Assembly (NCBI GenBank): GCA_951406725.2
Contig: OX597836.1
Coordinates: forward strand, 9,424,001 to 9,488,000
From: Octopus vulgaris
Taxonomy: Eukaryota
DNA: 64,000 nucleotides
Direction of reading: 5' to 3'
The position numbers and the translations under genes are program-made. Of the stretch, positions 9,196-54,370 are shown piece by piece (within the stretch, counting starts at the first letter, position 1; the number at the start of each line of letters is the position of its first letter). The notes under the pieces are model-generated. The model saw only the letters and a list, made by a program, of their open reading frames with translations. It was not told the DNA's origin and ran no database searches.

Positions 9196-9384
9196 CCTAA
9201 AGAGAAAGGGAGATGGAGAGATAGAGAAAGACAGGGAGTCAGAGAAGGAGAGTGAGGAGAGAGGGGAGAGAGAGAAAGAGAGTGAGATGAAAAGGAGTAT
9301 GAAAGTGCAGATAAGTACTACTTATCAAGTACTACTTAAAAAGAAAGTTCATGCAATGCTTATGAATGACAGTTTTTGTAAAAG

Positions 9385-10740: not shown

Positions 10741-10809
10741 CATCTTCCCATGGTCAGACAGATTTTCACACAACACTGGAAACGAAGAAGGATATTCATT
10801 TACAATAAT

Positions 10810-10985
10810 CATACACTGTCAAGATAAGGAGACATAAACATGCACACACCCACACTCATGCATAGTATTAATATAATAGAAGACAAGTAAGCTGTAGTTG
10901 AAGAGCCTTGCCCTAGGTGCCATGCAGTGGGACTGAACCTGAAACTTTGTGGTTGAGAGGCAAACTCCTTAGCCATACAGCCATG
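10810..10985 (-). mobile_element. tRNA-derived SINE 5' fragment
   Basis: Reverse complement has TGGCTGTATGG (A box) and GGTTCAGTCCC (B box), as in 21041-21200. Confidence 0.75.
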
Positions 10986-11118
10986 CCGGTACCTATAAGC
11001 TAATAAAAACTGAAAAACTAAAAATTGCAATAGAAGACTTTTTTTCTATTTGTTTCTGGTATTTTATTACAAAGTTGTCATATTTTCACTTACGTTTATT
11101 TCTTTTTATCATTTTTAG

Positions 11119-12306
11119 ATTCGAGTTCTTGGATTCATTGCTGTGGTCAGCAGCTTCTTTCTACTGTTTGACTGGAACCAATATTCTGTGAATAAAGAAT
11201 ATACAGGGACAACATTAAACAAACACAACCAAAAGTTTATAAATAATTCTAAGGAATTTCCAAATAATCAAGTGCATCATATAAATAACAAAACTGTAAG
11301 CAAAGAGAAACAGGAATTGGTTCAGTTAAACAACAAAACTAAATATATTATTTATTACTGTGTTAATAATATAGAGTGTGGCGGTTGGGGAGATAGGCAG
11401 CATGGAATAGTCTCTGTATATTTAATGGCACAGGCCATGGGTCGTCGTTTTGGCATCATTATTTCAAAACCTTGTAATTTTGCAAAATATTTTCAACCAA
11501 ACAAAATTAACTGGACAATTGACCCAAAAGAGTTGCATGGCCTAAAAAGTCGTCACCTACGTTTGACTCGAGATAAAGGGTACATATCTGCTTTACGATC
11601 AGTAGACTTAGAAAGACGCCACCCTCAAAATGTCCTCTATGTGACAACAAATTATATCTATTTTCACAGCTTAATAGAGAATCCTCGCTACAAAAAACAA
11701 CTTCTTTGGTCATCACAAATGCCATATGGAAATGTATTTGCTAAAATAATGAATTTAATGTTTCGATTCAATGATCATTTTCAAGAAGCGTTTGACAAAT
11801 TCTTTGAAGTCAATATCCCCAACCCAAATATGCATTTGGTGTGTGCTCAGATTCGAATTGGACGGAACCCCACAATGCCACATGATGACCGAAGGATGTC
11901 AATGTCAAGTGTTCAATCTCTCTGGAACTTCTTAAGTAAATACAAAAACACCAGCAAGTACAAAATGTTTGTGACAACAGACTCAGTAGAGGTACAGAAG
12001 ATAGCTTTAAAAAAATTTTCTCCTCAAATCGTGTACAACCCTGGGAAAATACTTCATGTGGATGAACGAAATCGAAAGGGGAAAAATAGGTGTGAAGGTA
12101 TATGGAAGGTCATTATGGACCAACATATTCTGACTAAATGTGATACGTTGATAATAAGCCGAAGTAATTTTGGTGAAAATGCTATGATGATGAGCCAAAA
12201 AGACAACAAAGTGTATTATTTTAAAGAAGGAAATATAACAAGGATCGACAAAAAAAATTTTTTCGTAACAGGTAAAATACTTGGTTGTGAGACAGGATTT
12301 TTTTGA
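11119..12306 (+). CDS. Large coding exon of a type II membrane fucosyltransferase-superfamily glycosyltransferase (GT-B; alpha-1,2/alpha-1,6/O-FucT-like), copy 1; start exon not found
   Basis: Polypyrimidine+AG acceptor at 11101-11118; frame reads IRVLGFIAVVSSFFLLF (TM), Asn-rich stem, CGGWGDRQHGI, CAQIRIG, MFVTTDS, DQHILTKCDTLIISRSNFG; AATAAA at ~12393 and ~12495. Confidence 0.8.
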   Translation: MRVLGFIAVVSSFFLLFDWNQYSVNKEYTGTTLNKHNQKFINNSKEFPNNQVHHINNKTVSKEKQELVQLNNKTKYIIYYCVNNIECGGWGDRQHGIVSVYLMAQAMGRRFGIIISKPCNFAKYFQPNKINWTIDPKELHGLKSRHLRLTRDKGYISALRSVDLERRHPQNVLYVTTNYIYFHSLIENPRYKKQLLWSSQMPYGNVFAKIMNLMFRFNDHFQEAFDKFFEVNIPNPNMHLVCAQIRIGRNPTMPHDDRRMSMSSVQSLWNFLSKYKNTSKYKMFVTTDSVEVQKIALKKFSPQIVYNPGKILHVDERNRKGKNRCEGIWKVIMDQHILTKCDTLIISRSNFGENAMMMSQKDNKVYYFKEGNITRIDKKNFFVTGKILGCETGFF

Positions 12307-12547
12307 CACCCAGAATCTGAAAGTGACATCCATGTATCATCATCATGTCAAGATCTTAAGATACTGGATGCATAGAATTTCATTGGTCTTTCAATAAAAC
12401 AGCTTATGAGGAATAAGGTATAACATACAAACATACATAGCAATTGATTTTCCTTCAAAACCAGAATGTTTTCTTGAAATTCTACTGAAGAACTAATAAA
12501 AATCTTCAAATTACTATAGGCAAATTATATCATTTACATATGCCCAC

Positions 12548-12620
12548 GGGCATATAGTGTAAGGGTTTTGAGCATGAGCTATTAACCCCAAGATTCCAAG
12601 TTCGATTCCAGGCAGTGACC
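12548..12620 (+). mobile_element. Degenerate tRNA-like SINE head
   Basis: TAGTGTAAGGG (A box-like) and AGTTCGATTCC (B box-like). Confidence 0.45.
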
Positions 12621-12629
12621 CAAGAAACA

Positions 12630-13260
12630 CAATTTCTAGTTAACTAAACACTTTAAAACTTCGTATACTGGTAGAATTATTTTCACTTGGCTTTCTTGAT
12701 AAATTTGTAATCCGTTTGTTTAACGTAGTTTAATTTTTCGAATTTTAACCAATCCTATGCTCTCTTTTGAGCTAAAATCATTTGCTGCATCTAAAACTGA
12801 GACAACATCCTGTAACCCTCCCCTCCCCCTAACCCTAAATCTTTTTTTTCTTAATTGTTAAATTAATTTGTTACGCGTGTAAAAAAAAAACTAAAGCAAT
12901 GGAAAATAATTTGGATCTTTTCCTTTTGATGGACGGAATTTTCTAGTTAACTAAACAATTTGAAACTTCGTATACTGGTAGAATGTGTCAAAAGAAAACA
13001 TTAATTTCACTTAGCTTTTTTGAGAAAATTGTATTTTGTAAGTTTTAGGTAGTTTAATTCTTCGAATTTTAACCAATCGTATTCTCTGTTTTGAGCTGAA
13101 ATCATTTTCCACGTCTAAACATACTGTTACTGTGACATAAACAGCTATTTTGTGACGTAGTTAACGTAAACAGTTAAATTCGTTTGAAAAGCTTGACATC
13201 CTAAACAGCTAAATTCGTTTGGAAAGCCTAAAATTAGTGTTTAAATTATTTTCCATTGTT
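12630..13260. repeat. Unclassified repeat with ~170-bp internal direct duplication
   Basis: TTTCTAGTTAACTAAACA..AAACTTCGTATACTGGTAGAAT block at ~12633 and ~12940. Confidence 0.6.
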
Positions 13261-14359
13261 TGCATTGCTTTATAGAATTTGAAAGTTATTCGTTTTGTAT
13301 AAAATTATTATTCATTTTGTTTGTGTTTATGTTTGTGCATGCCTTGTTATGGTTTATGTTAGGGTTACGTAAAATTCGTTTGTACATTCCCTGTTGGTCT
13401 ATTTCATATCACTTTTTTATCAACTACGTATAACTTCTTACATCATAAATTATTACTTAATCAAATTAATGTATATCTTTGTGTGTGTGTGTAGAGAGCG
13501 ATCATTGCATGCGTCTGTCTACCATAGTCGTGTGTAGCACTTTAATTTTCTCTCTCTCTTTCTCCTTTTATAAATATATATGTGCACAACAAACATGCCT
13601 ACACACGTACTGTTTACTTTGGATGAATAATAAACACATATTCAGTGTTTTTGTATAGGCTTCGGGTGTTTTCTCTATACAATGTATATATTTACTATAA
13701 ACTTGTGCACACGCTTTGATTCTTCAGTTTGACACACGCTTTGATTCAGTTATTTGGCTTGTATGCACCCACATACACACACACGTACCCATCCATACGC
13801 ATACTCGCACATAATCAGGGCCCCTCTGTATTTTCGCTCGTCGATGTGCTAGGAATAACACCCAAATCCCCTTAAAACCATATACTACTGGGTTAAAGGA
13901 AGGGTACATTGGCTAATATAATCATAGATGCTATATCTGAAAAAAAATGGGGGGAGGGGCACAAAAATACGGGTTGGTCATAGTTGGAACCCTTTGATCC
14001 TCAACCGGGTTTACCAGGATGACCTGAGTTAAATAGCAATAACAATATATTTGTAATATTGGTTATAGACACAAAGCATATATTTTGGGGTGAGTGGAGG
14101 GTATAATCATTTATAACGATCTCCAATTCTTGATCGATGTATTTTCTCAACTGTGGAAGAACAGACGGCTTGTTTTGAATTCTGGTGAGGGTTGAAACCC
14201 GAACGTATAGGACCATATCCCTAAACATTCTAACAGTCCTTTACCAAGCCCTTGTCAGCATGTAATATCATCTGATCCACATTATCTCTCTATTATTTGT
14301 CCACGTGTAAAAATATATCATCAAGGTGACATAGTTAAACTTTGACGAAAAAATATAAT

Positions 14360-14740
14360 GTAAAGCTGGCAGAATCGGTAGTGCATCGGATAAAATGCCT
14401 AACGTCATTTCTTACGAATCTTTACGTTCCGTGTTCGAATATTGCTGAGCTTTCCTTCTTTCGGGCGGCGCTTATAGAATAAGTACCAGTTGAATACAAT
14501 CGACTAGTTCTTCCCATCAGCTTCAGGCCTTGTACTTACTGGGGAAAGAAATATTATTAAGGAAGGGGGTGGGGCAAGCTGGCAAAATCGTTCGTGCGTC
14601 GGACAAAATACCTTGTGGCATTTCTTCCGACACTTCACATTACCGTCGTCGTCAACTTTACCTTTCATGATCAATTAAGTACCAGTCAATGTAATCGATT
14701 AAGCCCTCCTCCCAAATTGTTGGTCTTGTGCCAAAATTTT
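14360..14740 (+). mobile_element. Two tandem degenerate SINE fragments
   Basis: AGCTGGCAGAATCG..AAGTACCAGT motif pair repeated at 14365 and 14577. Confidence 0.6.
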
Positions 14741-15019
14741 GTGCAATTTTATTTTTTATATCGAAACTAAATATATAGTTTTAGCTCTCAAGGTGAACTC
14801 CAAGCAATTACCTATGATGAAAGGTATTCTAGGTTTGACCATCCCAAGTGTGACACCTACTCCAAAGGCACGATGAAGTGGTGGGCAGTTAAAATGTTTT
14901 AAAACGTAGATTTTTCAGAAAAATAAGATTTAATGCGAATTACATGTATTTTAGAGTGACGATGTCTTGCAAACAACTTGCACATGCAAGTGCTACCAGT
15001 TAAAAGCTCCATATACCGG

Positions 15020-16890
15020 AAGCTATCAAGTGTATGGGGTCATCAGGAGAGAATGCGCGCCGTTTCGGGGCCTACCTCATGACAGCATCAATGCGCACCG
15101 GCCCCCCTCACTGATATGAGGCCCCGCTTGCTAGATCAGCTGGTTATGAAGAACTCAATATACTTCTAGCCATCGCTCATCGTCTCTTTTTAGCCAAATC
15201 CAGTGGCTAGCCTTCTCCACTGTAGATTGGATATCAGTCATGATGGTATTGACTTTACGATGAGTTAGGCCTAGCGATAACAACAGTCGTCTCACGCTGT
15301 GTCCAATAAACTCTCTACATCCGACTTCGATAGGAAAAAGTTCAGCTTTCTACCCTGCGTCTTCACATTTCTCGAGGAGGTTTTCATAACGGTTCAATTT
15401 TCGAGCCCGAGCGGCGTCCATATTATCTTCATGAGGAACCGTTAGCTCGACTATATTTACAACTTTCTTTCTTCCACACCACATCAAAATATCTGGTTTT
15501 TTCGAAACTGGGATGGGAAAGAAAACCTGGCACCCAGGTAAATCTGCAGTTACCTCCCAATAGCCGTTCCACTTTTCATTTTTCTCAAGAAGTTTCTTGA
15601 TCTTCTTCTTGAAACGGATCCGCTGATCTGGTCGCACGAAGGTAATGAAATCTCTTGATGGTACTTTCAACGATTTTTCCTCAGTGTTGTTGAGATGAAT
15701 TTGGTTCTTTATAGCATTGAAGATAACCTTAAGGACCAAGTTGTGCCTCCATGTGTATCTGTTCAATGCTAATGAACAGTTGGAAAGAATATGTTTTAGT
15801 GTACCGACCTTTCCACATTTACAGATGTCATTCTCTAAGACGTTCCATCTTACTAGATTCGTAGGTGATGGCAAAACATCATAAGACGAACAAATGAGGA
15901 AACTCAGCCGAGATGTCGTCCACTTCCACATCTCATCCCAACTTATCTTCCTCTCAACAACATGTTCTTCACATCTCGTCATCTGACCTTGATGAACACA
16001 TCGGATCAAATGAAGCTCTCTTCTCTCTGCTTCTCTTGTTTTGACGCTGTTGCTAACAACAGATCTGCGTTCACTCCGCATCATGCTTGCAAACGGTCTG
16101 AACTGATCTGCGCCAAAACCAAGTCCTTTCCAATGGTTCTGCATTGCTCCCACCATATCTCTGTGTATAAGAGAAGACAAGATGTCGTCAGTTTCTGCTT
16201 CTGCTTTCCACTTCCTGGCTGTTTTCACCTCTGGTGGGTTACGCCTGATTTCCATATCCTTCGATTCTCTCAGCATCATGACCGTCCGTATCTTCCCCAG
16301 CTTATATATTTCGACTATTGATGCTATTGGTAGCTGCAACGAACCTCTTTTACGATAAAGAGCTGAGCTGTTCAACATACGAGGTAGACCTAGCCACTTT
16401 CTAATGAACACATTACATTTTTGTTCAATCCTTTCAACTCGTGACAAAGCTATTTCGTATATTAAAAGTGGCCACGCAAGTCGCGGGTACAAGCCGAACT
16501 GCAAGCACCAAATTTTATATTTACCTGGTAACTTCGAAACATCAATCGCTGATAACCCAGCCTCGGCCTGTTTCATAATTTCAATCCCACAACTTCTGTC
16601 TGACAATGTTCCAGTGTATACTCATCCCAAGCTCTTGACGGGCTCTTCCCCGTTGGAACGCTTTCTTCAGATATTTGAAACTTAAATTCTTTCTGCACTC
16701 CCTTAACAAATGTCAGACTACGCGACTTTTTTTGCTCTAAATCGCATCCTTGACCACCTTACAAGTTCGTATAATCTCAAGAGGGCATTCTGCATGATTT
16801 GTTTATCTGTAGCTAGAAGTGTCATGTCATCCATGAAGGCTTTCTTAGGCGATTGTACATGGGTGAAACCCCTCCAAAAATTTACCATCG
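15020..16890 (-). mobile_element. 5'-truncated non-LTR retrotransposon with restriction-like endonuclease (HERO-like), copy 1
   Basis: KAFMDD RT motif near 16830; ORF 15350-16606 with CxC..HILSNC zinc knuckle, YTWRHN, PDILMW..VELTVPHE. Confidence 0.85.
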
Positions 16891-18029
16891 AAATATCATT
16901 TTATTCTCGACAGCTATTTTGAAAGCCCGCCGTATTTTTATTATTATTCTGTCTGTTTAGGACTTTGTTATATGGGACGGTGGATTTTGAAGCATATATG
17001 ACTGCTATTTCTCGCTGGTTCGGAAGATAAACACCGAACTAGAGCACCTTTAATTAGTCATATAAAAGTAAAACCTGAAGCATTCAGCAATGGTCTGGAA
17101 GCGGTGGGGGTAATTGCTTCCTCTCTGAGAAAAGCAAAAAATTCACCAACCTCCTACGGTACCCAATAAAACTTTGAAACTTGTTTTCTCAGTTTCATTG
17201 AAGTTGTTCATGGTTAGTTAACTTTCATAAAATATTCTATTTATTTGGCTAATATCAGCAACAAGCGAAAACAAAAATTTTTTAAATTGTAGGAATGGAT
17301 CTTTGCCTTTGCATTCCTTCTGAGACAAAAGGCAAGAGCTGTGCCTTCAAAACTGGTAAGATTGACGTAGTTGATCTTGAATAAAATGTGTGGATGGCTG
17401 CAGAGGAAATAACATGGACAAGGGAATTTCAGAAGGCTGACAATCTGGTAAGAAAGAATTTAATGCTTAGTTTGCAGGTGAATTACACGCTACGTGATCT
17501 TCGAGCCTTTTGTCGCCAGATGCTGTAACATAGTTTGTATCCAATATAGTAGTACCACCACTATTGCGATTATGGCCTAAAATATGTGGTACCAGTGTGA
17601 TAAAATAAGATAATGCAGCAGCAATAACAATGTAACTATCTCTCAAGAACCAACAAATATTCCAAATGAACAAACCAACCCACACTCTCGAACTTCATTA
17701 TGAAATAACACAAACTATATACACTCTCTCGGTTCAGTCCATTCCTCACAAGAGGGTACCTTGACTCTCATCACAACACTGAGAGTGTAAGAGGTGACTT
17801 AAGGTTACTAACTTTGTTCTGCCGACAAATTTCCATTTATTTATTCTTAAGCTTCTCTTACTACTGGAAACCACCTCTGCCTGGTACTGGCATTTATGTG
17901 AACAATGTAGTCAATTGACAAGTATCAAATGCCACAATACATAAATTCCTTATTTATTAAAATTATTTTCAATTGTAGAAGTATCATAATTACTAAATGG
18001 TAATCGATTAGCATATTCAGGGCCATTTA

Positions 18030-19692
18030 GTCACCTACCAATCTGGTAGACACACTAGTCAAATTGACTACATCCTCACTAGGAAACAGGAAAGACGACT
18101 ACTTGTAAATGCCCAAACCTTCCCAGGTGAAGAATGTACCCCACAACATAGATTAGCAGTTAGCGACTTCAGGATCAGGGCTAAATGGATGCCCAGAAGA
18201 CGTCCAGAATGGAGGAGAAGGGTCTGGAAGCTTAAGGATCCTGCAAAAAGAGATTGAGAGACATTACTCAAAGCTGTGGAAACAACTGGAGGTTTCTACA
18301 GGACAACCTTTTGGGGGCTAGAGACCAGATCTGTGGATGGTGCAAAGTCTCCTCTCAACCTAAGGTAACGTGGTGGTGGAACAATGTTGTTGACAGGGCT
18401 AGTAAGGAAAAGAAACAGGCTTTGAAGGACTGGAAGACCGGTGATAGCAGGGAATTGTATCAGACTGCCGAAAAGGAAGCTAGGAGGCAGGTTTATTTGG
18501 CCCAAGGGGAAGCAGATAAGGAAAAATTTGCCAATGTTCTGCGCCATGATGACCAAAGACTTGAAGTATTTTCCTGTTGCCAGACAGCATGTGAGAGAGA
18601 ATCGCGATGTCCTAGGAGAGAAATGTGTCCTCATGGGTGACGGTTCATTTGCTTTAAGCGAAGCTGCAAAGAGACAGGTTTGGAGATGCCATTGTGAAAG
18701 TTTGCGAAATAAAGTGAATGAATGTGAGAAAGAGAGTCTGCCGAATGCCGGCCCAACAGAGGGAACAGCTATCTATCTAAATTGACAGTGCCTTGGTAGG
18801 TAAAGCAATTAAGGGTATGAAGACAGGGAAAGCCCCCAGACAATCAGGAATCATCACAGAGATGCTCAAAATATCTGGCGGTGTCGGCTATAGCCTAGTC
18901 AACCAGGTGATACATGAAGGAGTCATACCCAATGACTGGTGTAGCAGCACCATAGTCAACTGCTAACAAAGATAAAGGTGACGCATTAGATACAAATAAT
19001 TACAGAGGTATCAAGTTGTTGGATCAGGTAATGAAGGTCACGGAGAGGGTCATAGCCCAAGTAATTAAGGAGAGAGGCAGTCTAGATGAGATGCAGTTTC
19101 GGTTCGTGCCAGGGGAAAGTACCACTGATGCTATATTTCTGATAAGACAGATGCAGGAGAAATAGCTAGTCCAAGATAAAACTCTGTACCTGGCTTTCAT
19201 TGACAGGGTCCCCCGATCCCCTATCTGGTGGTCAATGAGGAGACTAGGGATGGATGAATGCTTATTGAGAGCTGTACAAGCCATGTACAGTTAGGTGACG
19301 GTTGGCAACGAGTACAGTGAAGAATATCGGGTAGGGGTAAGGGTCAACCTAAGATCAGTCCTCAGCCCCCTCTTATTCATTATAGTCCTCCAGGCAATAA
19401 CAGAGGAATTCAAGACAGGCTGCTCCTCGATGCTGATGACCTTGCACTAGTAGCAGAGTCACTGCCGGAACTGGAGCCAAAGGTTAGGGCGTGGAAGCAA
19501 AGTCTAGAATTGAATGGCCTTAGGGTTAACCTAGCCAAAACCAAAGTTTTAGTTAGTGTGCAGGCTGTCAAATCACAAACTCCTCTGTAGAAAAGGCATT
19601 GGTAGAAACTCCATAAGATGCACCCGGTGTAAGCTATGGACACATAAAAGGTGCAGCAATATCAAAGGAAGGTTAACTGGGAAAATTATTTT
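18030..19692 (+). mobile_element. Older decayed RTE LINE fragment (duplicate at ~50935-52596)
   Basis: DYILTRK, VTWWWN, NYRGIKLLDQVMKVTER, CTRCKLWTHKRC; many stops and deletions. Confidence 0.9.
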
Positions 19693-19784
19693 CCCTTTCA
19701 TTTTTATTTACTTTTTTAAACACCCTAAACTGAAAGATTACCTTAACGCCTCTCCCTAAACACAATAAAATTATCGCCTATATA

Positions 19785-19960
19785 TCTTTTACTTGTTTTA
19801 GCTTATGGACTGCAATCATATTTGGGGCATCGCCTCCCAATATTTATCGCTTAAAGGCCTGACGCTTGTCCTATCGGCCGTTTGTGTCGAACCTCTAAGT
19901 TACGGGGGTGTAAACAAACCAACTCGGTTGTCAAGCGGTGGTGGGCTGACAAACACAAAT
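19785..19960 (-). mobile_element. SINE 3' fragment
   Basis: Reverse complement resembles 30265-30465. Confidence 0.6.
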
Positions 19961-20062
19961 ACACATTTATATCACCTTCACCAACCAGTCTATCGGGCGT
20001 CCATTTCACACCGCTGTCCTCTCTTCTCTGGAACCCGCCTTCCTCAAGAACACATTGGTACT

Positions 20063-20242
20063 ACTAGCTAGTCGTGACTAGTCGATCCTACAACGACTAC
20101 CTAGCAAAGTAAATAAAACACGAAATAAATAATTTGTTTACTTTTGTTAAAGTAAATAAAACACAAAATAAATAATTTTTAAAACAAAGTAAATAACACA
20201 CAAAAACACAAAGTAAGGATCGACTAGTCATGACTAGCTAGT
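20063..20242. repeat. Foldback element: 27-bp inverted arms around AAAGTAAATAAAACAC repeats
   Basis: ACTAGCTAGTCGTGACTAGTCGATCCT ... AGGATCGACTAGTCATGACTAGCTAGT. Confidence 0.75.
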
Positions 20243-21206
20243 GCCGATGCGCGAGTACGCGAGTGCGCGCACCGGAACCACTGTTCTCAAGTAGTACGGG
20301 ACACATTTATATACATAGAATAAATACCAGACTTTAGAATATAAGCGCCGTAGTCGATTTAATCAACTGAATCATTGAAAATGGTGACTCCAGCATGGTC
20401 GTACTTGCAACAAGTAAAAGCTAAGAGGATATCAAAATGATTCCCCTTGCAATGCAAAGTCACCTCCCTTACATTATATTCCTTCTTTTCTTCTCATGGA
20501 TTCCGGCAAAATTTTTTGAGTTGCCTTGAAAATAATCAGTTACCGTAAATCCTCGAGTATAGTCCGCCCTTGAGTATAATATGCAGGGGATTTTTAGGGG
20601 GCTGTACCTCTGAAAAACCTAAACCTTGTGTATAATACGCGCCCCTTCTCTAACTTGAGTCAAGGAGGTCTATATAACGTCCTTGATTTGTAAAACTGTA
20701 TACGGTAACGTCCTTAATTATTATTGTATATGTAACATAATGCAAACGTGTAGCTTTTTTATGCATTTTGTTTGCAGAAAATAAAGAAATAACAGTAATA
20801 GCGTTTAATAAATGTTGCTTACTGTAAGTTATGGATGATTCTTTTATGACTTCATTGCTTTCAGGCTTAGCTTAAGGTATTTTCGCGCCCAACATCACAA
20901 AATGCATCTGAATAAACATTGCCGGATAGCAAATAGAGACTCAGACATTGCTTAGAAAATAATTTTCATTTTTAACCTCGTATATAGTACGCACTAGGGA
21001 TTTTGGCCTTTAAATTTTGGGGAAAAAAATGCGGATTATAGGCGCAGGAGTGGCTGTGTGGTAAGTAGCTTGTTTACCAGCCACATGGTTCCGGGTTCAG
21101 TCCCACTGCGTGGCACCTTGGGCAAGTGTCTTCTACTATAGCCTCGGGCTGACCAAAGCCTTTTCAGTGGATTTGGTAGACGGAAACTGAAAGAAGCCCG
21201 TCTTAT

Positions 21207-21450
21207 ATCATCATCATCATCATCATCATTTAACGTCCGTTTTCCGCGCTAGCACGGGTTGGACGGTTTCGACCGGGGTCTGGGGAGCTCGGGACTGCCC
21301 CAGGCTCCAGTCTAGTCTGGCAGTGTTTCTACAGCTGGATGCCCTTCCTAACGCCAACCACTCCGCGAGTGTAGTGGGTGTTTTTTACGTGCCACCTGCA
21401 CAGGTGCCAGAGGGGTCTGGCATCGGCCACGTTCGGATGGTGCTTTTTAT
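21207..21450 (-). mobile_element. RTE 3' UTR end with (GAT)n tail
   Basis: (ATC)n followed by reverse complement of the RTE 3' UTR seen at 8050-8276 and 33700-33945. Confidence 0.9.
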
Positions 21451-22237
21451 GGGGGGGGGGTGCAGAAATATAGGGGAGCACCAGTGGGAGGGATGGTTCA
21501 GAGGACAGGTACTAGGCAAGTAGAACGTAGGATACCGAGAGAGGGGTAATGCATGGTGAAATAGCGTATTGAAGAGGGGGCTTCAAATAGTAGACACCTA
21601 TAATGGTGGTGGGGGGTGCAGAAATATAGGGGAGCACCAGTGGTAGGGGGTGGTTCAGAGGACAGGTTCTAGGCAAGTAGAACGTAGGATATCGAGAGAG
21701 GGGTAATGCATGGTGAAATAGCGTATTGAAGAGGGGGGTTCAAAGAGTAGACACCTATAATGGTGGTGGGGGGTGCAGAAATATAGGGGAGCACCAGTGG
21801 GAGGGGTGGTTCAGAGGACAGGTTCTAGGCAAGTAGAACGTAGGATATCGAGAGAGGGGTAATGTATGGTGAAATAGCGTATTGAAGAGGGGGTTCAAAG
21901 AGTAGACACCTATAATGGTGGTGGGGGGATGCAGAAATATAGGGGAGCACCAGTGGGAGGGGTGGTTCAGAGGACAGGTTCTAGGCAAGTAGAACGTAGG
22001 ATATCGAGAGAGGGGTAATGCATGGTGAAATAGCGTATTGAAGAGGGGGGTTCAAAGAGTAGACACCTATAATGGTGGTGGGGGGTGCAGAAATATAGGG
22101 GAGCACCAGTGGGAGGGGTGGTTCAGAGGACAGGTTCTAGGCAAGTAGAACGTAGGATATCGAGAGAGGGGTAATGCATGGTGAAATAGCGTATTGAAGA
22201 GGGGGTTCAAAGAGTAGACACCTATAATGGTGGTGGG
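21451..22237. repeat. G-rich tandem repeat, 5 x ~156 bp
   Basis: TGCAGAAATA recurs at 21461, 21617, 21774, 21930, 22086. Confidence 0.95.
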
Positions 22238-22310
22238 AGAAACGACATCCGGTATAGTTGGAGCAAAATAGAGATATTCGGTATTGGTGGTGGGGGTGGG
22301 TAGGGCGGGC

Positions 22311-25300
22311 TCAGAATAATAATAATAATTAATAAATAGAAATACGGGATGAATTAAAGTTCAAGGATTTCTTATCTTGGGATCACTTCGTTTACGGACA
22401 GTCTTGGCAAAAGGAATTCGGAATCAAGAATGAGGCAGGATACTAGCTTAAGTATGCATAGGAGTCCAGACAGACAATGTAAAAAGAGGGGGAGAGAAGG
22501 GCGCGAAGAATCAGCAGCCAATTTCTATCAGCCCTGTAAGGGAGAATAGATCTTAAATATCTATAACGATAACTAGTGAATTATACAGAATATGCAAAAA
22601 CGAGGCGAGGCTGAAATAGTAAACAGAGTGGCGTCTTGGGGGATCAGAATAATAATAATAATTAATAAATAGAAATACGGGATGAATTAAAGTTCAAGGA
22701 TTTCTTATCTTGGGATCACTTCGTTTACGGACAGTCTTGGCAAAAGGAATTCGGAATCAAGAATGAGGCAGGATACTAGCTTAAGTATGCATAGGAGTCC
22801 AGACAGACAATGTAAAAAGAGGGGGAGAGAAGGGCGCGAAGAATCAGCAGCCAATTTCTATCAGCCCTGTAAGGGAGAATAGATCTTAAATATCTATAAC
22901 GATAACTAGTGAATTATACAGAATATGCAAAAACGAGGCGAGGCTGAAATAGTAAACAGAGTGGCGTCTTGGGGGATCAGAATAATAATAATAATTAATA
23001 AATAGAAATACGGGATGAATTAAAGTTCAAGGATTTCTTATCTTGGGATCACTTCGTTTACGGACAGTCTTGGCAAAAGGAATTCGGAATCAAGAATGAG
23101 GCAGGATACTAGCTTAAGTATGCATAGGAGTCCAGACAGACAATGTAAAAAGAGGGGGAGAGAAGGGCGCGAAGAATCAGCAGCCAATTTCTATCAGCCC
23201 TGTAAGGGAGAATAGATCTTAAATATCTATAACGATAACTAGTGAATTATACAGAATATGCAAAAACGAGGCGAGGCTGAAATAGTAAACAGAGTGGCGT
23301 CTTGGGGGATCAGAATAATAATAATAATTAATAAATAGAAATACGGGATGAATTAAAGTTCAAGGATTTCTTATCTTGGGATCACTTCGTTTACGGACAG
23401 TCTTGGCAAAAGGAATTCGGAATCAAGAATGAGGCAGGATACTAGCTTAAGTATGCATAGGAGTCCAGACAGACAATGTAAAAAGAGGGGGAGAGAAGGG
23501 CGCGAAGAATCAGCAGCCAATTTCTATCAGCCCTGTAAGGGAGAATAGATCTTAAATATCTATAACGATAACTAGTGAATTATACAGAATATGCAAAAAC
23601 GAGGCGAGGCTGAAATAGTAAACAGAGTGGCGTCTTGGGGGATCAGAATAATAATAATAATTAATAAATAGAAATACGGGATGAATTAAAGTTCAAGGAT
23701 TTCTTATCTTGGGATCACTTCGTTTACGGACAGTCTTGGCAAAAGGAATTCGGAATCAAGAATGAGGCAGGATACTAGCTTAAGTATGCATAGGAGTCCA
23801 GACAGACAATGTAAAAAGAGGGGGAGAGAAGGGCGCGAAGAATCAGCAGCCAATTTCTATCAGCCCTGTAAGGGAGAATAGATCTTAAATATCTATAACG
23901 ATAACTAGTGAATTATACAGAATATGCAAAAACGAGGCGAGGCTGAAATAGTAAACAGAGTGGCGTCTTGGGGGATCAGAATAATAATAATAATTAATAA
24001 ATAGAAATACGGGATGAATTAAAGTTCAAGGATTTCTTATCTTGGGATCACTTCGTTTACGGACAGTCTTGGCAAAAGGAATTCGGAATCAAGAATGAGG
24101 CAGGATACTAGCTTAAGTATGCATAGGAGTCCAGACAGACAATGTAAAAAGAGGGGGAGAGAAGGGCGCGAAGAATCAGCAGCCAATTTCTATCAGCCCT
24201 GTAAGGGAGAATAGATCTTAAATATCTATAACGATAACTAGTGAATTATACAGAATATGCAAAAACGAGGCGAGGCTGAAATAGTAAACAGAGTGGCGTC
24301 TTGGGGGATCAGAATAATAATAATAATTAATAAATAGAAATACGGGATGAATTAAAGTTCAAGGATTTCTTATCTTGGGATCACTTCGTTTACGGACAGT
24401 CTTGGCAAAAGGAATTCGGAATCAAGAATGAGGCAGGATACTAGCTTAAGTATGCATAGGAGTCCAGACAGACAATGTAAAAAGAGGGGGAGAGAAGGGC
24501 GCGAAGAATCAGCAGCCAATTTCTATCAGCCCTGTAAGGGAGAATAGATCTTAAATATCTATAACGATAACTAGTGAATTATACAGAATATGCAAAAACG
24601 AGGCGAGGCTGAAATAGTAAACAGAGTGGCGTCTTGGGGGATCAGAATAATAATAATAATTAATAAATAGAAATACGGGATGAATTAAAGTTCAAGGATT
24701 TCTTATCTTGGGATCACTTCGTTTACGGACAGTCTTGGCAAAAGGAATTCGGAATCAAGAATGAGGCAGGATACTAGCTTAAGTATGCATAGGAGTCCAG
24801 ACAGACAATGTAAAAAGAGGGGAGAGAAGGGCGCGAAGAATCAGCAGCCAATTTCTATCAGCCCTGTAAGGGAGAATAGATCTTAAATATCTATAACGAT
24901 AACTAGTGAATTATACAGAATATGCAAAAACGAGGCGAGGCTGAAATAGTAAACAGAGTGGCGTCTTGGGGGATCAGAATAATAATAATAATTAATAAAT
25001 AGAAATACGGGATGAATTAAAGTTCAAGGATTTCTTATCTTGGGATCACTTCGTTTACGGACAGTCTTGGCAAAAGGAATTCGGAATCAAGAATGAGGCA
25101 GGATACTAGCTTAAGTATGCATAGGAGTCCAGACAGACAATGTAAAAAGAGGGGGAGAGAAGGGCGCGAAGAATCAGCAGCCAATTTCTATCAGCCCTGT
25201 AAGGGAGAATAGATCTTAAATATCTATAACGATAACTAGTGAATTATACAGAATATGCAAAAACGAGGCGAGGCTGAAATAGTAAACAGAGTGGCGTCTT

Positions 25301-28300
25301 GGGGGATCAGAATAATAATAATAATTAATAAATAGAAATACGGGATGAATTAAAGTTCAAGGATTTCTTATCTTGGGATCACTTCGTTTACGGACAGTCT
25401 TGGCAAAAGGAATTCGGAATCAAGAATGAGGCAGGATACTAGCTTAAGTATGCATAGGAGTCCAGACAGACAATGTAAAAAGAGGGGGAGAGAAGGGCGC
25501 GAAGAATCAGCAGCCAATTTCTATCAGCCCTGTAAGGGAGAATAGATCTTAAATATCTATAACGATAACTAGTGAATTATACAGAATATGCAAAAACGAG
25601 GCGAGGCTGAAATAGTAAACAGAGTGGCGTCTTGGGGGATCAGAATAATAATAATAATTAATAAATAGAAATACGGGATGAATTAAAGTTCAAGGATTTC
25701 TTATCTTGGGATCACTTCGTTTACGGACAGTCTTGGCAAAAGGAATTCGGAATCAAGAATGAGGCAGGATACTAGCTTAAGTATGCATAGGAGTCCAGAC
25801 AGACAATGTAAAAAGAGGGGGAGAGAAGGGCGCGAAGAATCAGCAGCCAATTTCTATCAGCCCTGTAAGGGAGAATAGATCTTAAATATCTATAACGATA
25901 ACTAGTGAATTATACAGAATATGCAAAAACGAGGCGAGGCTGAAATAGTAAACAGAGTGGCGTCTTGGGGGATCAGAATAATAATAATAATTAATAAATA
26001 GAAATACGGGATGAATTAAAGTTCAAGGATTTCTTATCTTGGGATCACTTCGTTTACGGACAGTCTTGGCAAAAGGAATTCGGAATCAAGAATGAGGCAG
26101 GATACTAGCTTAAGTATGCATAGGAGTCCAGACAGACAATGTAAAAGGGGGAGAGAAGGGCGCGAAGAATCAGCAGCCAATTTCTATCAGCCCTGTAAGG
26201 GAGAATAGATCTTAAATATCTATAACGATAACTAGTGAATTATACAGAATATGCAAAAACGAGGCGAGGCTGAAATAGTAAACAGAGTGGCGTCTTGGGG
26301 GATCAGAATAATAATAATAATTAATAAATAGAAATACGGGATGAATTAAAGTTCAAGGATTTCTTATCTTGGGATCACTTCGTTTACGGACAGTCTTGGC
26401 AAAAGGAATTCGGAATCAAGAATGAGGCAGGATACTAGCTTAAGTATGCATAGGAGTCCAGACAGACAATGTAAAAAGAGGGGGAGAGAAGGGCGCGAAG
26501 AATCAGCAGCCAATTTCTATCAGCCCTGTAAGGGAGAATAGATCTTAAATATCTATAACGATAACTAGTGAATTATACAGAATATGCAAAAACGAGGCGA
26601 GGCTGAAATAGTAAACAGAGTGGCGTCTTGGGGGATCAGAATAATAATAATAATTAATAAATAGAAATACGGGATGAATTAAAGTTCAAGGATTTCTTAT
26701 CTTGGGATCACTTCGTTTACGGACAGTCTTGGCAAAAGGAATTCGGAATCAAGAATGAGGCAGGATACTAGCTTAAGTATGCATAGGAGTCCAGACAGAC
26801 AATGTAAAAAGAGGGGGAGAGAAGGGCGCGAAGAATCAGCAGCCAATTTCTATCAGCCCTGTAAGGGAGAATAGATCTTAAATATCTATAACGATAACTA
26901 GTGAATTATACAGAATATGCAAAAACGAGGCGAGGCTGAAATAGTAAACAGAGTGGCGTCTTGGGGGATCAGAATAATAATAATAATTAATAAATAGAAA
27001 TACGGGATGAATTAAAGTTCAAGGATTTCTTATCTTGGGATCACTTCGTTTACGGACAGTCTTGGCAAAAGGAATTCGGAATCAAGAATGAGGCAGGATA
27101 CTAGCTTAAGTATGCATAGGAGTCCAGACAGACAATGTAAAAAGAGGGGGAGAGAAGGGCGCGAAGAATCAGCAGCCAATTTCTATCAGCCCTGTAAGGG
27201 AGAATAGATCTTAAATATCTATAACGATAACTAGTGAATTATACAGAATATGCAAAAACGAGGCGAGGCTGAAATAGTAAACAGAGTGGCGTCTTGGGGG
27301 ATCAGAATAATAATAATAATTAATAAATAGAAATACGGGATGAATTAAAGTTCAAGGATTTCTTATCTTGGGATCACTTCGTTTACGGACAGTCTTGGCA
27401 AAAGGAATTCGGAATCAAGAATGAGGCAGGATACTAGCTTAAGTATGCATAGGAGTCCAGACAGACAATGTAAAAAGAGGGGGAGAGAAGGGCGCGAAGA
27501 ATCAGCAGCCAATTTCTATCAGCCCTGTAAGGGAGAATAGATCTTAAATATCTATAACGATAACTAGTGAATTATACAGAATATGCAAAAACGAGGCGAG
27601 GCTGAAATAGTAAACAGAGTGGCGTCTTGGGGGATCAGAATAATAATAATAATTAATAAATAGAAATACGGGATGAATTAAAGTTCAAGGATTTCTTATC
27701 TTGGGATCACTTCGTTTACGGACAGTCTTGGCAAAAGGAATTCGGAATCAAGAATGAGGCAGGATACTAGCTTAAGTATGCATAGGAGTCCAGACAGACA
27801 ATGTAAAAAGAGGGGGAGAGAAGGGCGCGAAGAATCAGCAGCCAATTTCTATCAGCCCTGTAAGGGAGAATAGATCTTAAATATCTATAACGATAACTAG
27901 TGAATTATACAGAATATGCAAAAACGAGGCGAGGCTGAAATAGTAAACAGAGTGGCGTCTTGGGGGATCAGAATAATAATAATAATTAATAAATAGAAAT
28001 ACGGGATGAATTAAAGTTCAAGGATTTCTTATCTTGGGATCACTTCGTTTACGGACAGTCTTGGCAAAAGGAATTCGGAATCAAGAATGAGGCAGGATAC
28101 TAGCTTAAGTATGCATAGGAGTCCAGACAGACAATGTAAAAAGAGGGGGAGAGAAGGGCGCGAAGAATCAGCAGCCAATTTCTATCAGCCCTGTAAGGGA
28201 GAATAGATCTTAAATATCTATAACGATAACTAGTGAATTATACAGAATATGCAAAAACGAGGCGAGGCTGAAATAGTAAACAGAGTGGCGTCTTGGGGGA

Positions 28301-30248
28301 TCAGAATAATAATAATAATTAATAAATAGAAATACGGGATGAATTAAAGTTCAAGGATTTCTTATCTTGGGATCACTTCGTTTACGGACAGTCTTGGCAA
28401 AAGGAATTCGGAATCAAGAATGAGGCAGGATACTAGCTTAAGTATGCATAGGAGTCCAGACAGACAATGTAAAAAGAGGGGGAGAGAAGGGCGCGAAGAA
28501 TCAGCAGCCAATTTCTATCAGCCCTGTAAGGGAGAATAGATCTTAAATATCTATAACGATAACTAGTGAATTATACAGAATATGCAAAAACGAGGCGAGG
28601 CTGAAATAGTAAACAGAGTGGCGTCTTGGGGGATCAGAATAATAATAATAATTAATAAATAGAAATACGGGATGAATTAAAGTTCAAGGATTTCTTATCT
28701 TGGGATCACTTCGTTTACGGACAGTCTTGGCAAAAGGAATTCGGAATCAAGAATGAGGCAGGATACTAGCTTAAGTATGCATAGGAGTCCAGACAGACAA
28801 TGTAAAAAGAGGGGGAGAGAAGGGCGCGAAGAATCAGCAGCCAATTTCTATCAGCCCTGTAAGGGAGAATAGATCTTAAATATCTATAACGATAACTAGT
28901 GAATTATACAGAATATGCAAAAACGAGGCGAGGCTGAAATAGTAAACAGAGTGGCGTCTTGGGGGATCAGAATAATAATAATAATTAATAAATAGAAATA
29001 CGGGATGAATTAAAGTTCAAGGATTTCTTATCTTGGGATCACTTCGTTTACGGACAGTCTTGGCAAAAGGAATTCGGAATCAAGAATGAGGCAGGATACT
29101 AGCTTAAGTATGCATAGGAGTCCAGACAGACAATGTAAAAAGAGGGGGAGAGAAGGGCGCGAAGAATCAGCAGCCAATTTCTATCAGCCCTGTAAGGGAG
29201 AATAGATCTTAAATATCTATAACGATAACTAGTGAATTATACAGAATATGCAAAAACGAGACGAGGCTGAAATAGTAAACAGAGTGGCGTCTTGGGGGAT
29301 CAGAATAATAATAATAATTAATAAATAGAAATACGGGATGAATTAAAGTTCAAGGATTTCTTATCTTGGGATCACTTCGTTTACGGACAGTCTTGGCAAA
29401 AGGAATTCGGAATCAAGAATGAGGCAGGATACTAGCTTAAGTATGCATAGGAGTCCAGACAGACAATGTAAAAAGAGGGGGAGAGAAGGGCGCGAAGAAT
29501 CAGCAGCCAATTTCTATCAGCCCTGTAAGGGAGAATAGATCTTAAATATCTATAACGATAACTAGTGAATTATACAGAATATGCAAAAACGAGGCGAGGC
29601 TGAAATAGTAAACAGAGTGGCGTCTTGGGGGATCAGAATAATAATAATAATTAATAAATAGAAATACGGGATGAATTAAAGTTCAAGGATTTCTTATCTT
29701 GGGATCACTTCGTTTACGGACAGTCTTGGCAAAAGGAATTCGGAATCAAGAATGAGGCAGGATACTAGCTTAAGTATGCATAGGAGTCCAGACAGACAAT
29801 GTAAAAAGAGGGGGAGAGAAGGGCGCGAAGAATCAGCAGCCAATTTCTATCAGCCCTGTAAGGGAGAATAGATCTTAAATATCTATAACGATAACTAGTG
29901 AATTATACAGAATATGCAAAAACGAGGCGAGGCTGAAATAGTAAACAGAGTGGCGTCTTGGGGGATCAGAATAATAATAATAATTAATAAATAGAAATAC
30001 GGGATGAATTAAAGTTCAAGGATTTCTTATCTTGGGATCACTTCGTTTACGGACAGTCTTGGCAAAAGGAATTCGGAATCAAGAATGAGGCAGGATACTA
30101 GCTTAAGTATGCATAGGAGTCCAGACAGACAATGTAAAAAGAGGGGGAGAGAAGGGCGCGAAGAATCAGCAGCCAATTTCTATCAGCCCTGTAAGGGAGA
30201 ATAGATCTTAAATATCTATAACGATAACTAGTGAATTATACAGAATAT
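22311..30248. repeat. Satellite array: 23 full + 1 partial copies of a 333-bp monomer
   Basis: TCAGAATAATAAT recurs at 22311, 22644, 22977 ... 29633, 29966; near-perfect identity. Confidence 0.98.
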
Positions 30249-31008
30249 ATATATATGCATGTGTGTCTGTGTTTGCCCCCCTAGCACTGCTTGACAACCG
30301 ATGCTGGTGTGTTTGCGTCCCCGTCACTTAGCGGTTCGGCAAAAGCGACCGATAGAATAAGTACTGGGCTTACAAAAGAATAAGTCCCGGGGTCGAGTTG
30401 CTCGATTAAAGGCGGTGCTCCAGCGTGGCTGCAATCAAAAGACTGAAACAAGTAAAAGAGTAAAAGAGTATTATACACGAGGATTTACGGTAGTTAATTG
30501 AAATGTAATAGAAATGAGCTTCTGGATATGAAACCGATTCAGCAATATAGTTAAAAGTTTCTCGGAAGGTCACTCTAGAATTTGTTTGCAAAATGTGTCT
30601 TTGAGTTTGACCTTTTGTTTCAGTAAACTATTTTTTTTTTCAGTCAACCTCCAGGTTTTGACCTGAGTAACAGCAACAGAGGAAAAAAAAATGAAAATAA
30701 AATAGTGTAATTGGTGTAAAACATATAGTAAATGAATGTGAAAAACAAAATGCGTGCTGGCGAACTCGGAAAATTCATATGATCAAACTCACAGGATCTG
30801 AAAAATCAAGGTTAACCCGGTCACAAAAATGAAAAAATTAAAAAATTAAAAAATAGTGCAGTCAGCGTAAAACAACATGTAGTAAAGAAATATGGAAAAT
30901 AACAATAATAATAATGCGCGCTGGTGAACGGAGGTGAAGGGAGAGGACCAGGATGATTCACACTATCCGATTTTTCCCCTCAAGAAAATGGATATTCTTT
31001 CCAACCAC

Positions 31009-31340: not shown

Positions 31341-33945
31341 AGCAGAGAACTGTACCAGGTAGCCAAAAGGGAGGCTGGGTGGCAGATATACATAGCCAAG
31401 GGTGAAGCCGAAAAGAAGAAGTTTGCCAATGTCCAGCGACGTGAGGACCAACGAACTGAGGTATTTCGGATTGCAAGACAATGTGCGAGAGAAAATAGTG
31501 ATGTCACAGGAGAGAAATGCGTCCGCATGGATGATGGTGCACTTGCTTTCAATGTTTCTGAAAAGAAAAAGGCTTGGAGAAGCCATTATGAGAGACTGCT
31601 GAATGTGGAGAATGAATGGGAGGAGGAGAGCCTGCCAAATGCTGACCCAGTAGAGGGACCAGATATCCGAATAGACAGCTCCCTAGTAGTTAAGGCAATT
31701 AAGGGTATGAAGTATGAAACCAGGAAAAGCCCCTGGCCCATCAGGAATCACTGCTTAGATGCTTAAAACATATGGTTGTGTGGGCTATGGCCTAGTCACC
31801 CGCATTGTAAACCAGGTATTTCATAATGGAGTCATACCCAATGATTGGCGTAGCAGCACCATAGTCAATTGCTACAAGGGTAAAGGTGATGCTCTAGATA
31901 GAAATAACTACAGGGGTATTAAACTGTTGGATCAGGTGATGAAGGTCACAGAGAGGGTCATATGAGATGCAGTTCAGTTTTGTGCCAGGTAGATGCACCA
32001 CCGATTCCATATTCCTGGTTCGACAACTGCAGGAGAAGTACCTAGCTAAAGATAAACCCCTCTACATAGCTTTCGTGGACTTGGAGAAAGCCTTTGACAG
32101 GATCCCCCAATCCCTCATCTGGTGGGCAATGCGGAAACTGGAGATTGGCGAATGGTTAATAAGGGCTGTACAGGCCCTATACAGAGAGGCTGTCAGCAAG
32201 GTTAGGATTGGCAATGAGTATAGTGAAGAATTCCGGGTAGAAGTAGGGGTCCACCAAGGTTCAGCCCTCAGTCCCCTTTTATTCATCACAGTCCTCCAAG
32301 CAATAACAGAGGAATTCAAAACAGGTTGCCCCTGGGAGCTCCTCTATGCTGATGACCTGGCCTTCATAGCAGAATCACTACCGGAACTAGAAAAGAAATT
32401 TCGGCTGTGGAAGCAAGGTTTAGAATCAAAGAGCGTTAGAGTAAATGTAGCAAAGACCAAAGTTATAGTAAGCAGAAAGGTGAACTCATCACACACCCGC
32501 ACGGGCAGGTGGCCCTGCTCGATCTGTAGGAAAGGTGTAGGTAGAAACTTCATAAGATGTACCCAGTGTAAGCTATGGACGCATAAGAGGTTCAGCAACA
32601 TCAAAGGAAAATTAACTGATAAGATAGCTTTCATGTGGGCAGATGCACAGGGGTAATAGACACCACAGATACTCAGAAAACAGATTCCATCACACTCCAG
32701 GGGGAGAAACTAGGAGTAGTTGATAGTTTCCGATACCTAGGTGACCAAGTTAGTAGTGGAGGTGGATGCTCAGGGTGTCACCACTAGAATACGAATAGCC
32801 TGGGCAAAATTCAGAAAGCTCCTACCCCTACTGGCGACAAAGGGTCTCTTGCTCAAAGTGAAAGGTAGATTGTATGACGCATGTGTGCGAACTGCCATGC
32901 TTCACGGTAGTGAAACATGGGCTGTGACTGCAGAGGACATGCGTAGACTTGAAAGAAATAAAGCTAGCATGATCCGCTGGATGTGTAATGTCAGTGTGCA
33001 TGCACGACAAAGTGTAAGCGCCCTGAGAGAAATGCTGGACATAAGAAGCATCAGATGTGGTGTGCAAGAGCGACGCTTGCGATGGTATGGTCATGTTCTG
33101 CGGATGGATGAAGAGAGATGTGTGAAGTAGTGCCACTCCCAAACAGTTGATGGTATCAGGGGGAGAGGTAGACCCAGGAAGACATGGGATGAGGTAGTCA
33201 AGCATGACCTCCGAGCGTTGGGCCTCACAGAGGCAATGATGAAGGACCGAGATCTCTGGAGATATGCTGTGACTGCAAAGACCCGGGCTGCTTTCTGCAC
33301 CAGTTTCGCATAGCCCCTGCCCATTCAAAGTACCTTGGATTGCAGAACGACCTGCTGTGCTTACCTTGGATCGTAGAGTGACCTGCTGTGCTCGAGGAGA
33401 CCTATTGAGTCAAGTACATCAACATCGAAATAAATATCAAATGGAAATTGTAGTTACGATATCTGTCCTGGTGGCACATAAAAAGCACCATCCGAACGTG
33501 GCCAATGCCAGCGCTGCCTTGACTGGCTTCTGTGCCGGTGGCACATGACCTGCTGTGCTTGAGGAGACCTATTGAGTTAAGTACATCAAGATCGAAATAA
33601 ATATCAATGGAAATAGTAGTTGTGATACCTTTGCCGGTGGCACGTAAAAAGCACCATCCAAACGTGGCTGATGCCAGCTCCGCCTTGACTGGCTTCTGTG
33701 CCGGTGACACGTAAAAAGCACCAACTGATTGTGGACGCTGCCAGCCTCCCCTGGCACCTGTGCCAGTGGCACGTAAAAAGTACTCACTACACTCACAGAT
33801 TGGTTGGCGTTAGGAAGAGCATTGAGCTGTAGAAACACTTCCAGATCAGATTGGAGCCTGGTGCAGCCTCCTGGCTTCCCAGACTCCGGTCGAACCGTCC
33901 AACCCGTGCTAGCACGGACAACGAACATTAAACGATGATGATGAA
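31341..33945 (+). mobile_element. RTE LINE, RT to (GAT)n tail, decayed
   Basis: ORFs 31527-33130 with FVDLEKAFD, GVHQGS, YADD; 3' UTR sub-repeats and tail. Confidence 0.92.
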
Positions 33946-38778: not shown

Positions 38779-38876
38779 TACAAGCAATAATTCAGATAAA
38801 AATTCAAAGAAAGATAAAAAGTTACAGAAATAAAAGTTACATGAATAAAGTAAGGAATAAAAAAAAAATATAGGAA

Positions 38877-39050
38877 AATTTACAAAAACTATGTTAATAA
38901 TATATAGTGTTCCAAATAAAATTAAATTTAGAAACACTATGTTAATAATATATAGTGTTCCAAATAAAATTAAGTTTACAAATACTATGTTAATAATATA
39001 TAGTGTTCCAAATAAAATTAAATTTACAAAAACTATGTTAATAATATATA
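38877..39050. repeat. 48-bp AT-rich minisatellite, ~3.5 copies
   Basis: ACTATGTTAATAATATATAGTGTTCCAAATAAAATTAAATTT repeated. Confidence 0.9.
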
Positions 39051-53444: not shown

Positions 53445-54370
53445 TACCGTAAATCCTCGAGTATAGTCCGCCCTTGAGTATAATATGCAGGGGATTTTTA
53501 GGGGGCTGTACCTCTGAAAAACCTAAACCTTGTGTATAATACGCGCCCCTTCTCTAACTTGAGTCAAGGAGGTCTATATAACGTCCTTGATTTGTAAAAC
53601 TGTATACGGTAACGTCCTTAATTATTATTGTATATGTAACATAATGCAAACGTGTAGCTTTTTTATGCATTTTGTTTGCAGAAAATAAAGAAATAACAGT
53701 AATAAAGTTTAATAAATGTTGCTTACTGTAAGTTATGGATGATTCTTTTATGACTTCATTGCTTTCAGGCTTAGCTTAAGGTATTTTCGCGCCCAACATC
53801 ACAAAATGCATCTGAATAAACATTGCCGGACAGCAAATAGAGACTCAGACATTGCTTAGAAAATAATTTTCATTTTTAACCTCGTATATAGTACGCACTA
53901 GGGATTTTGGCCTTTAAATTTTGGGGAAAAAAATGCGGATTATAGGCGCAGGAGTGGCTGTGTGGTAAGTAGCTTGTTTACCAGCCATATGGTTCCGGGT
54001 TCAGTCCCACTGCGTGGCACCTTGGGCAAGTGTCTTCTACTATAGCCTCGGGCTGACCAAAGCCTTTTCAGTGGATTTGGTAGACGGAAACTGAAAGAAG
54101 CCCGTCTTATATATGTATATATATATATATATATGCATGTGTGTCTGTGTTTGCCCCCCTAGCACTGCTTGACAACCGATGCTGGTGTGTTTGCGTCCCC
54201 GTCACTTAGCGGTTCGGCAAAAGCGACCGATAGAATAAGTACTGGGCTTACAAAAGAATAAGTCCCGGGGTCGAGTTGCTCGATTAAAGGCGGTGCTCCA
54301 GCGTGGCTGCAATCAAAAGACTGAAACAAGTAAAAGAGTAAAAGAGTATTATACACGAGGATTTACGGTA
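53445..54370. mobile_element. TIR element containing intact SINE (53945-54346); empty site for the 9-kb insertion at ~54108-54134
   Basis: Same TIRs and SINE as 20541-30492, with only (TA)n between the SINE halves. Confidence 0.9.

Follow-up and report, generated by a model that had tools for sequence, protein, structure and literature searches.

A young, non-coding, probably RTE-derived family with exchangeable tandem arrays at its 5′ end in Octopus vulgaris

The origin of satellites at new loci has long been in question. SVA elements and variable number tandem repeat (VNTR) composites are non-coding and composite, carry tandem arrays and are moved in trans by a long interspersed nuclear element (LINE), while retrozymes of the non-LTR (long terminal repeat) type form dispersed tandem arrays of 230–400-bp near-identical units made by retrotransposition. 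Bipartite non-autonomous RTE LINEs, such as RTESINE1/2, WALLSI3, MAR4_MD, RTE-N2_Lch and Bov-A, are thought to be polymerase II transcripts moved in trans (Kojima 2018, PMC5786205). In mouse and rat L1, the monomers of the 5′ end carry the promoter (Zhou and Smith 2019, PMC6454616; Boissinot and Sookdeo 2016, PMC5381506). According to PMC6454616 it is unclear how such arrays are maintained in the face of 5′ truncation; the paper proposes unequal crossing-over for a mouse array of 50 monomers. For RTE elements, the 3′ microsatellite has been reported to be linked to the site of insertion (PMC6007223), and RTE-2_OV of the octopus brain is a single-frame endonuclease–reverse transcriptase (EN-RT) element with a zinc finger, untranslated regions (UTRs) of about 600 nt and a product of 1109 amino acids (aa) (Petrosino 2022, PMC9115989). 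The available text of PMC13282606 uses neither of the terms 'satellite' and 'non-autonomous'. Here we analyse a 9-kb insert, the cassette, in a stretch of 64,000 nucleotides of Octopus vulgaris DNA (the window; contig OX597836.1, positions 9,424,001 to 9,488,000). We consider it probable that this insert is a 5′-truncated member of a young family of non-coding, RTE-derived elements, whose 5′ end consists of tandem units that likely act as promoters.

Read on the minus strand, the insert runs from an array of 333-bp units through a spacer, a 156-bp array and about 220 bp of LINE 3′ UTR to (GAT)7 at 21207 (Table 1). An earlier note on the same DNA had given this order correctly, together with a spacer of about 73 bp, which is present and measures 69 bp (22238–22306). 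Its claim that the insert lacks coding capacity is also borne out by all six frames, no ATG-started frame exceeding 18 aa on the element strand or 41 aa on the opposite one. Twenty of the 23 complete 333-bp units are identical, one carrying a substitution and two short deletions, and the 156-bp array holds 5.0 units. The 156-bp segment of the body is single-copy in other subfamilies and aligns in parts to the longer bodies of older relatives. Neither a tRNA-derived head nor an Rfam family match was found in the insert, the Rfam matches being TA/CA microsatellites against microRNA models, below the model cut-offs. The body of the element fits the bipartite RTEs as PMC5786205 presents them, with a 5′ part joined to an RTE-type 3′ UTR without a reading frame and closed by a microsatellite tail. 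The RTE-derived elements tabulated in that paper are a few hundred bases long, and its main text does not contain the word 'tandem', whereas the cassette has a head of tandem units that spans up to 8 kb and can be exchanged from one subfamily to another, and an internal 156-bp array as well.

Table 1. Position of the insert's parts, its flanks and the empty site within the window
Feature	Position	Strand	Basis or remark
Left part of short host repeat (SINE-like, short interspersed nuclear element) whose TA run is the target	21036..21206	+	flank/paralog alignment, BLAST
(GAT)n 3′ tail	21207..21229	-	(ATC)7 on forward strand; same tail on intact LINE
RTE-type 3′ UTR, ending in two-tier stem-loop (likely recognition signal)	21230..21449	-	LINE 3′ UTR likeness
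Internal tandem duplication of element body, 5 x 156 bp	21455..22237	-	repeat structure
Leader ('spacer') starting with C-rich motif common to autonomous LINE	22238..22309	-	motif comparison
5′ array, 23.9 x 333-bp units, truncated inside unit; likely promoter monomers	22307..30248	-	repeat structure
Right part of short host repeat	30249..30459	+	flank/paralog alignment, BLAST
Empty site, 27-nt TA run in paralogous unit	54108..54134	+	paralog alignment

Searching the genome for the junction between 156-mer and tail gave 586 candidates, and all 40 that were scored match over the full length at 97–100%, on 16 contigs, 39 of them at places other than the window. The exact 45-mer of the tail occurs 558 times, the window-type spacer has 153 exact matches and one motif of the 333-bp unit has 673. 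Twenty copies were fetched with 9 kb upstream for comparison. All share the 3′ end and carry one to eight 156-mers each, 15 reach a large array, and no shared non-array sequence beyond common repeats was found upstream among them. The 3′ UTR is 99–100% identical among family copies. Along the 156-mer array, the order of variants from unit to unit is nearly the same in six siblings and in the window, which indicates that this array was copied from a linear template. The derived array/spacer junction of the window has four full-length matches, the window itself and three siblings.

The mode of insertion can be read from the ends of the copies. Of 40 consecutive window-type copies, 38 reach the array, whose length (mean 0.94 kb, median 0.67, maximum 3.3 kb) is roughly exponential. 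Both ends could be mapped in 52 of 60 copies. In 45 of these 52, one junction is flanked by TA-rich sequence, a property shared by 6.6% of background 12-mers. Several copies have target-site duplications containing non-repeat letters, such as the 16 bp at L194, and in copy L162 the 5′ part is inverted. A fixed 3′ end, 5′ truncation, duplications and one inversion are established marks of target-primed reverse transcription.

We take this to be a genuine family, young and without coding capacity, RTE-derived, with arrays at the 5′ end that can be exchanged, and likely a source of small satellites. The junction search upholds the suggestion in the earlier note of a non-autonomous RTE-mobilised element carrying arrays. 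The other origin it had offered, a chimera made by a template switch at this insertion, finds no support, since the siblings share both the 156-mer variant order and the derived array/spacer junction. That the window locus is a one-off chimera or an assembly artefact is hardly credible, considering the hundreds of dispersed copies, the three siblings with the same derived junction and the parts of the family (156-mer, leader and unit) present in contigs of four other sequencing runs. In favour of an artefact, the contigs are too short to test the window locus, no read was seen spanning its junctions, and with units so nearly identical their number, 24, may reflect an error of assembly. Words of 22082–22640 are also present, at a fraction of at least 0.40, in 19 of 24 listed public runs under four organism labels; five runs may be RNA and are not counted as evidence of expression.

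The insert interrupts a tandemly duplicated unit, where 8272–21208 aligns with 41159–54112 at 99.3% and the alignment resumes at 30245/54123. The absence of the insert from the paralogous unit, as first noticed, is confirmed, and a third unit, at window coordinate 78090 just outside the window, is empty too. Around the insert 11–17 nt of the 27-nt TA run persist and 10–16 target bases are missing, with no recognisable target-site duplication. The run sits within an abundant short repeat, both halves of which are covered by 12 of 29 BLAST matches. Over 12.95 kb, the two empty units differ by 40 mismatches and the filled unit differs from them by 63 and 75. As the empty units are closer to each other, and the tail of the insert is 99–100% identical to dispersed copies, the insert appears to be a gain that postdates the duplication of the unit.

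A candidate for the source of the enzymes is found in the same genome. A protein search recovered many young copies of an autonomous LINE with an open frame of 1059 aa, in which Exo_endo_phos and RVT_1 of Pfam score above cut-off and a PHD-like finger below it. Its architecture, a single long frame with apurinic/apyrimidinic endonuclease and reverse transcriptase and a microsatellite tail, is that of the RTE clade, to which it probably belongs. Among solved structures, which include no named RTE reference, its reverse transcriptase best matches L1 ORF2 and R2. The 3′ UTR of the intact LINE is 84–86% identical to the cassette tail over 243 bp and ends in the same (GAT)n. Both 3′ ends are predicted to form the same terminal stem-loop; in the single comparison made, both bases of one pair differ between them, and a second pair differs in one base. 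The 3′ UTRs of the LINE (L081–L088) have tandem repeats of their own, of 62–63, 98 and 166 bp, which also occur in the window at 3262–3622 and 33379–33710, and the tail of the cassette starts inside one such repeat unit. RTE-2_OV resembles this LINE as a single-frame EN-RT element with a zinc finger and with UTRs of about 600 nt, and its description in PMC9115989 reports no tandem head. Identity of the two was rejected, the products having 1059 and 1109 aa and each of four RTE-2_OV primers given in that paper showing at least five mismatches in the LINE.

The family would likely derive from an RTE LINE by loss of the reading frame, and an RTE protein would likely act in trans to copy its RNA into (TA)n sites. 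We are fairly sure that such a protein would bind the 3′ stem-loop and prime on TA runs through the (GAT)n tail. Several observations weigh against this account, in which the LINE is no more than a candidate for parent and driver. The cassette tail is only 84–86% like that of the active LINE, none of the 20 best tail loci holds a coding element with the family's own tail, and none of 30 loci with the second variant of the leader motif holds a coding element. Furthermore, the 333-bp unit has no BLAST similarity to the 610-bp unit of the LINE, and the likeness between the two leaders, another difference from the bipartite RTEs as described in PMC5786205, is confined to about 30 nt, beyond which 18–170 of 300 shuffles reach the score.

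Going upstream from its frame, the LINE first shows a short unique leader, which is preceded by tandem units of about 610 bp, and a 28-nt C-rich motif, near-identical and in the same position, opens both this leader and the spacer of the cassette. Two variants of the motif occur 347 and 116 times in the genome, against none for the reversed control, and 30 loci were fetched for each. Among the loci listed, arrays end exactly at the motif, with periods of 235–241, 290–310, 342–381, 489–545 and about 600 bp, and of 333–419 bp in the group of the window, where the first bases of the motif were lost by deletion in the sub-lineage of the window copy. LINE arrays of 10, 18, 24, 31 and 41 units end at the same motif. 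By BLAST, the units form at least five groups with no mutual likeness beyond simple repeats. In three copies (L229, L230 and L232) the stub of one array lies between two leaders and another array stands in front; we read these double-leader copies as intermediates of head exchange, and we think it likely that a template switch at the leader provides new heads. Rather than passenger DNA, the array of 333-bp units is probably the 5′ head of the element. The satellite that the earlier note had described as carried by the element is better read as the element's own 5′ monomer array, with the spacer as a leader common to the autonomous LINE. A derivation of the 156-mer from the leader of the active LINE was rejected, its score not exceeding that of shuffles. 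In one subfamily (L231, L233–L237, L239, L244–L247, L251, L252; L080), the C-rich leader motif is itself expanded into irregular short tandem repeats over hundreds of bases, different in each copy.

From comparison with the rodent monomers, the 5′ units likely serve as promoter. If RNA polymerase II starts within the units, which we find reasonably probable, a copy shortened at its 5′ end would still have a promoter, like copies of mouse L1. A single TATA-like box lies at position 245 of the 610-bp unit. Some 30 nt behind it, at unit position 275–290, a different LINE with an open frame of up to 1131 aa is inserted at two loci (L213–L214 at G000:C6:114.83-114.85 Mb, twice in tandem, and L216–L217 at G000:C9:77.64 Mb; 16-bp duplication). 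CGCCAT, the core of the YY1 motif that PMC6454616 names, is present in four of six unit types (p=0.0007, for a motif chosen after viewing the units). The promoter reading is weakened by the 333-bp unit, which lacks CGCCAT and, by inspection, a canonical TATA box, and by the absence of a start-site peak of 5′ ends within the unit (Rayleigh p=0.10, with a mild excess in an AT-rich part, 5-bin p=0.04; n=38 of 40). That missing peak would also be expected of neutral, satellite-like hitch-hikers transcribed from host promoters, as would units that differ wholly between subfamilies, are G-poor (7–15% G) and rich in simple repeats. We nevertheless regard such hitch-hiking as unlikely, for chance would not predict an array at the same motif in many subfamilies and in the autonomous LINE, and the TATA-like box with a second LINE inserted behind it speaks against it as well.

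The length of the arrays is best followed in the LINE. Of 24 copies fetched, 7 lack the leader and 17 were used for unit counts, 13 with at most 1.15 units and four with 10, 24, 31 and 41 (up to 24.8 kb); a single exponential is rejected (p=1.5e-6). All long arrays stop mid-unit, and copies with identical frames carry different majority units. Within the 41-unit array two substitutions at about 40% frequency are interleaved, their local order recurring without a period, and the one searched for is found in this array only (17 matches genome-wide). The majority variant of the 31-unit array is private as well, with 25 matches. These interleaved alleles reject single-unit rolling circles, and an array made of copies of one circular monomer is ruled out. 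Private variants favour, as their simplest explanation, amplification of blocks of units in DNA after insertion. Over 3 kb of frame the four long-array copies lack any private substitution, short ones having 0–12 (p=0.02), a result in keeping with either very recent insertion or a role as source elements. The non-coding copy L257 (G000:C2:58.74 Mb) has a block of three units (389/415/413 bp) repeated about 3.5 times, a higher-order satellite in the making within a young copy.

Satellites likely grow from the 5′ units after an element lands. We lean slightly towards a scheme in which most copies would land with 1–5 units and a minority grow to 10–40 by block amplification in DNA, offsetting the loss of units at each round; the 24 units of the window are taken to be a grown array. 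Some results do not favour this scheme. No offspring carrying the private variants of the 31- and 41-unit arrays, at most candidate sources, was found. The non-coding family has arrays of 10, 13 and 19 units among 26 loci, besides the 24 in the window, and a separate class of long arrays is not significant there, a two-component fit gaining 2 log units over these loci. The array of the window has no shared informative variants and thus gives no sign of growth in place. A 7.8-kb tandem duplication at G000:C13:65.41-65.45 Mb (L267–L271) has a truncated family copy in each of its five units; in this cluster, the only one tested for differing array length among duplicated insertions, the copies are without units.

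Long arrays might instead arise during insertion itself, if the reverse transcriptase repeatedly returned, in register, to the start of a template of a few units or circled on a multi-unit RNA or DNA, and the array would then have no true end. Such a process would agree with the mid-unit stop of every long array and the lack of any copy with a defined 5′ end, with the fast formation implied by LINE frames without private substitution, with the local order of four units kept four times without long-range period in the 41-unit array (given as a 40-unit array in this connection) and with the repeated block of L257. It would require that parent templates of the two tested private variants be absent from the assembly, a one-unit circle could not yield the interleaved alleles, no hammerhead or hepatitis delta virus (HDV)-like ribozyme was found, and the 156-mer array was inherited linearly. 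We hold this possibility to be doubtful, and rather improbable as well its corollary that RTE-type elements have no fixed 5′ end and rebuild the promoter array at each insertion, one event writing a satellite of 8–25 kb. Were it true, any sequence docked at the 28-nt leader would become the next satellite.

Alternatively, every copy could have been inserted from a long linear RNA made by a master with a long array, in which case short arrays would reflect truncation or later contraction, with no special step of growth. The position of long-array LINE copies at hubs of frame haplotypes and the near-exponential lengths of the 38 window-type arrays would suit such masters. This is very unlikely in our view, as RNAs of up to 29 kb would be needed and the long arrays would still require a source, copies with identical frames carry different majority units, and tail divergence in the non-coding family shows no trend with array length (rho -0.16, p=0.35, n=37). 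Growth after landing remains our preferred reading.

In comparison with SVA, the cassette is built from the LINE's own ends instead of Alu and retroviral pieces, its main array is 5′ and its tail is (GAT)n. From retrozymes it differs in that a fixed linear body and a LINE tail follow the arrays in every case; membership was rejected, no ribozyme being found by Rfam or by a hammerhead/HDV pattern search on 11 unit types, and the alleles being interleaved.

The head works like a rodent L1 monomer array without being one. As PMC6454616 and PMC5381506 describe for mouse and rat L1, tandem 5′ units vary in number and are joined by a unique tether, heads are replaced between families and very long arrays of 50 monomers occur, rarely. 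The octopus elements belong to another LINE clade, and their non-coding parasites carry heads too. Their units are G-poor and are not CpG islands, they have no sharp truncation site, the 5′ ends (n=38) not clustering at one place as in mouse type A monomers, and arrays of 10–41 units are not rare, being present in 4 of 17 LINE copies. In the literature searched, tandem-monomer heads were not described for RTE elements or their derivatives, and Repbase or the repeat library of PMC13282606 may already hold consensus pieces; collapsed consensus sequences would hide such heads. The name of an undescribed system, used in the earlier note, is nonetheless too strong, bipartite RTEs and mouse L1 monomers having preceded both parts, while its route for seeding satellites holds as a description.

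The monomer-head design extends here to a second LINE clade and to the non-coding elements that parasitise it, and very young copies number in the hundreds. Several types of head on one body, intermediates of their exchange and arrays of less than one to 41 units marked by private variants are available in one genome. With private variants, young copies and this range of arrays, growth after insertion and growth during reverse transcription become testable against each other.

Other features of the window lie outside the insert. The paralogous units differ in a 48-bp repeat, with 3.6 copies at 38876–39050 and 5.6 at 62777–63047. An intronless frame of 395 aa is tandemly duplicated (11119–12306 and 44018–45206, the frame of the second copy being shorter, 385 aa), with further copies at window coordinates 68017 and 92794 (L221–L226); the copies are 98–99% alike, and the frame has a weak fucosyltransferase match below cut-off (FUT8_N_cat, E=0.019). 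A remnant of 423 aa on the minus strand (15350–16621 and 48250–49521) has no Pfam match and carries motifs like those of restriction-like-endonuclease LINEs, to which it presumably belongs. Broken frames at 246–1861 (minus) resemble a Penelope-type element in their motifs.

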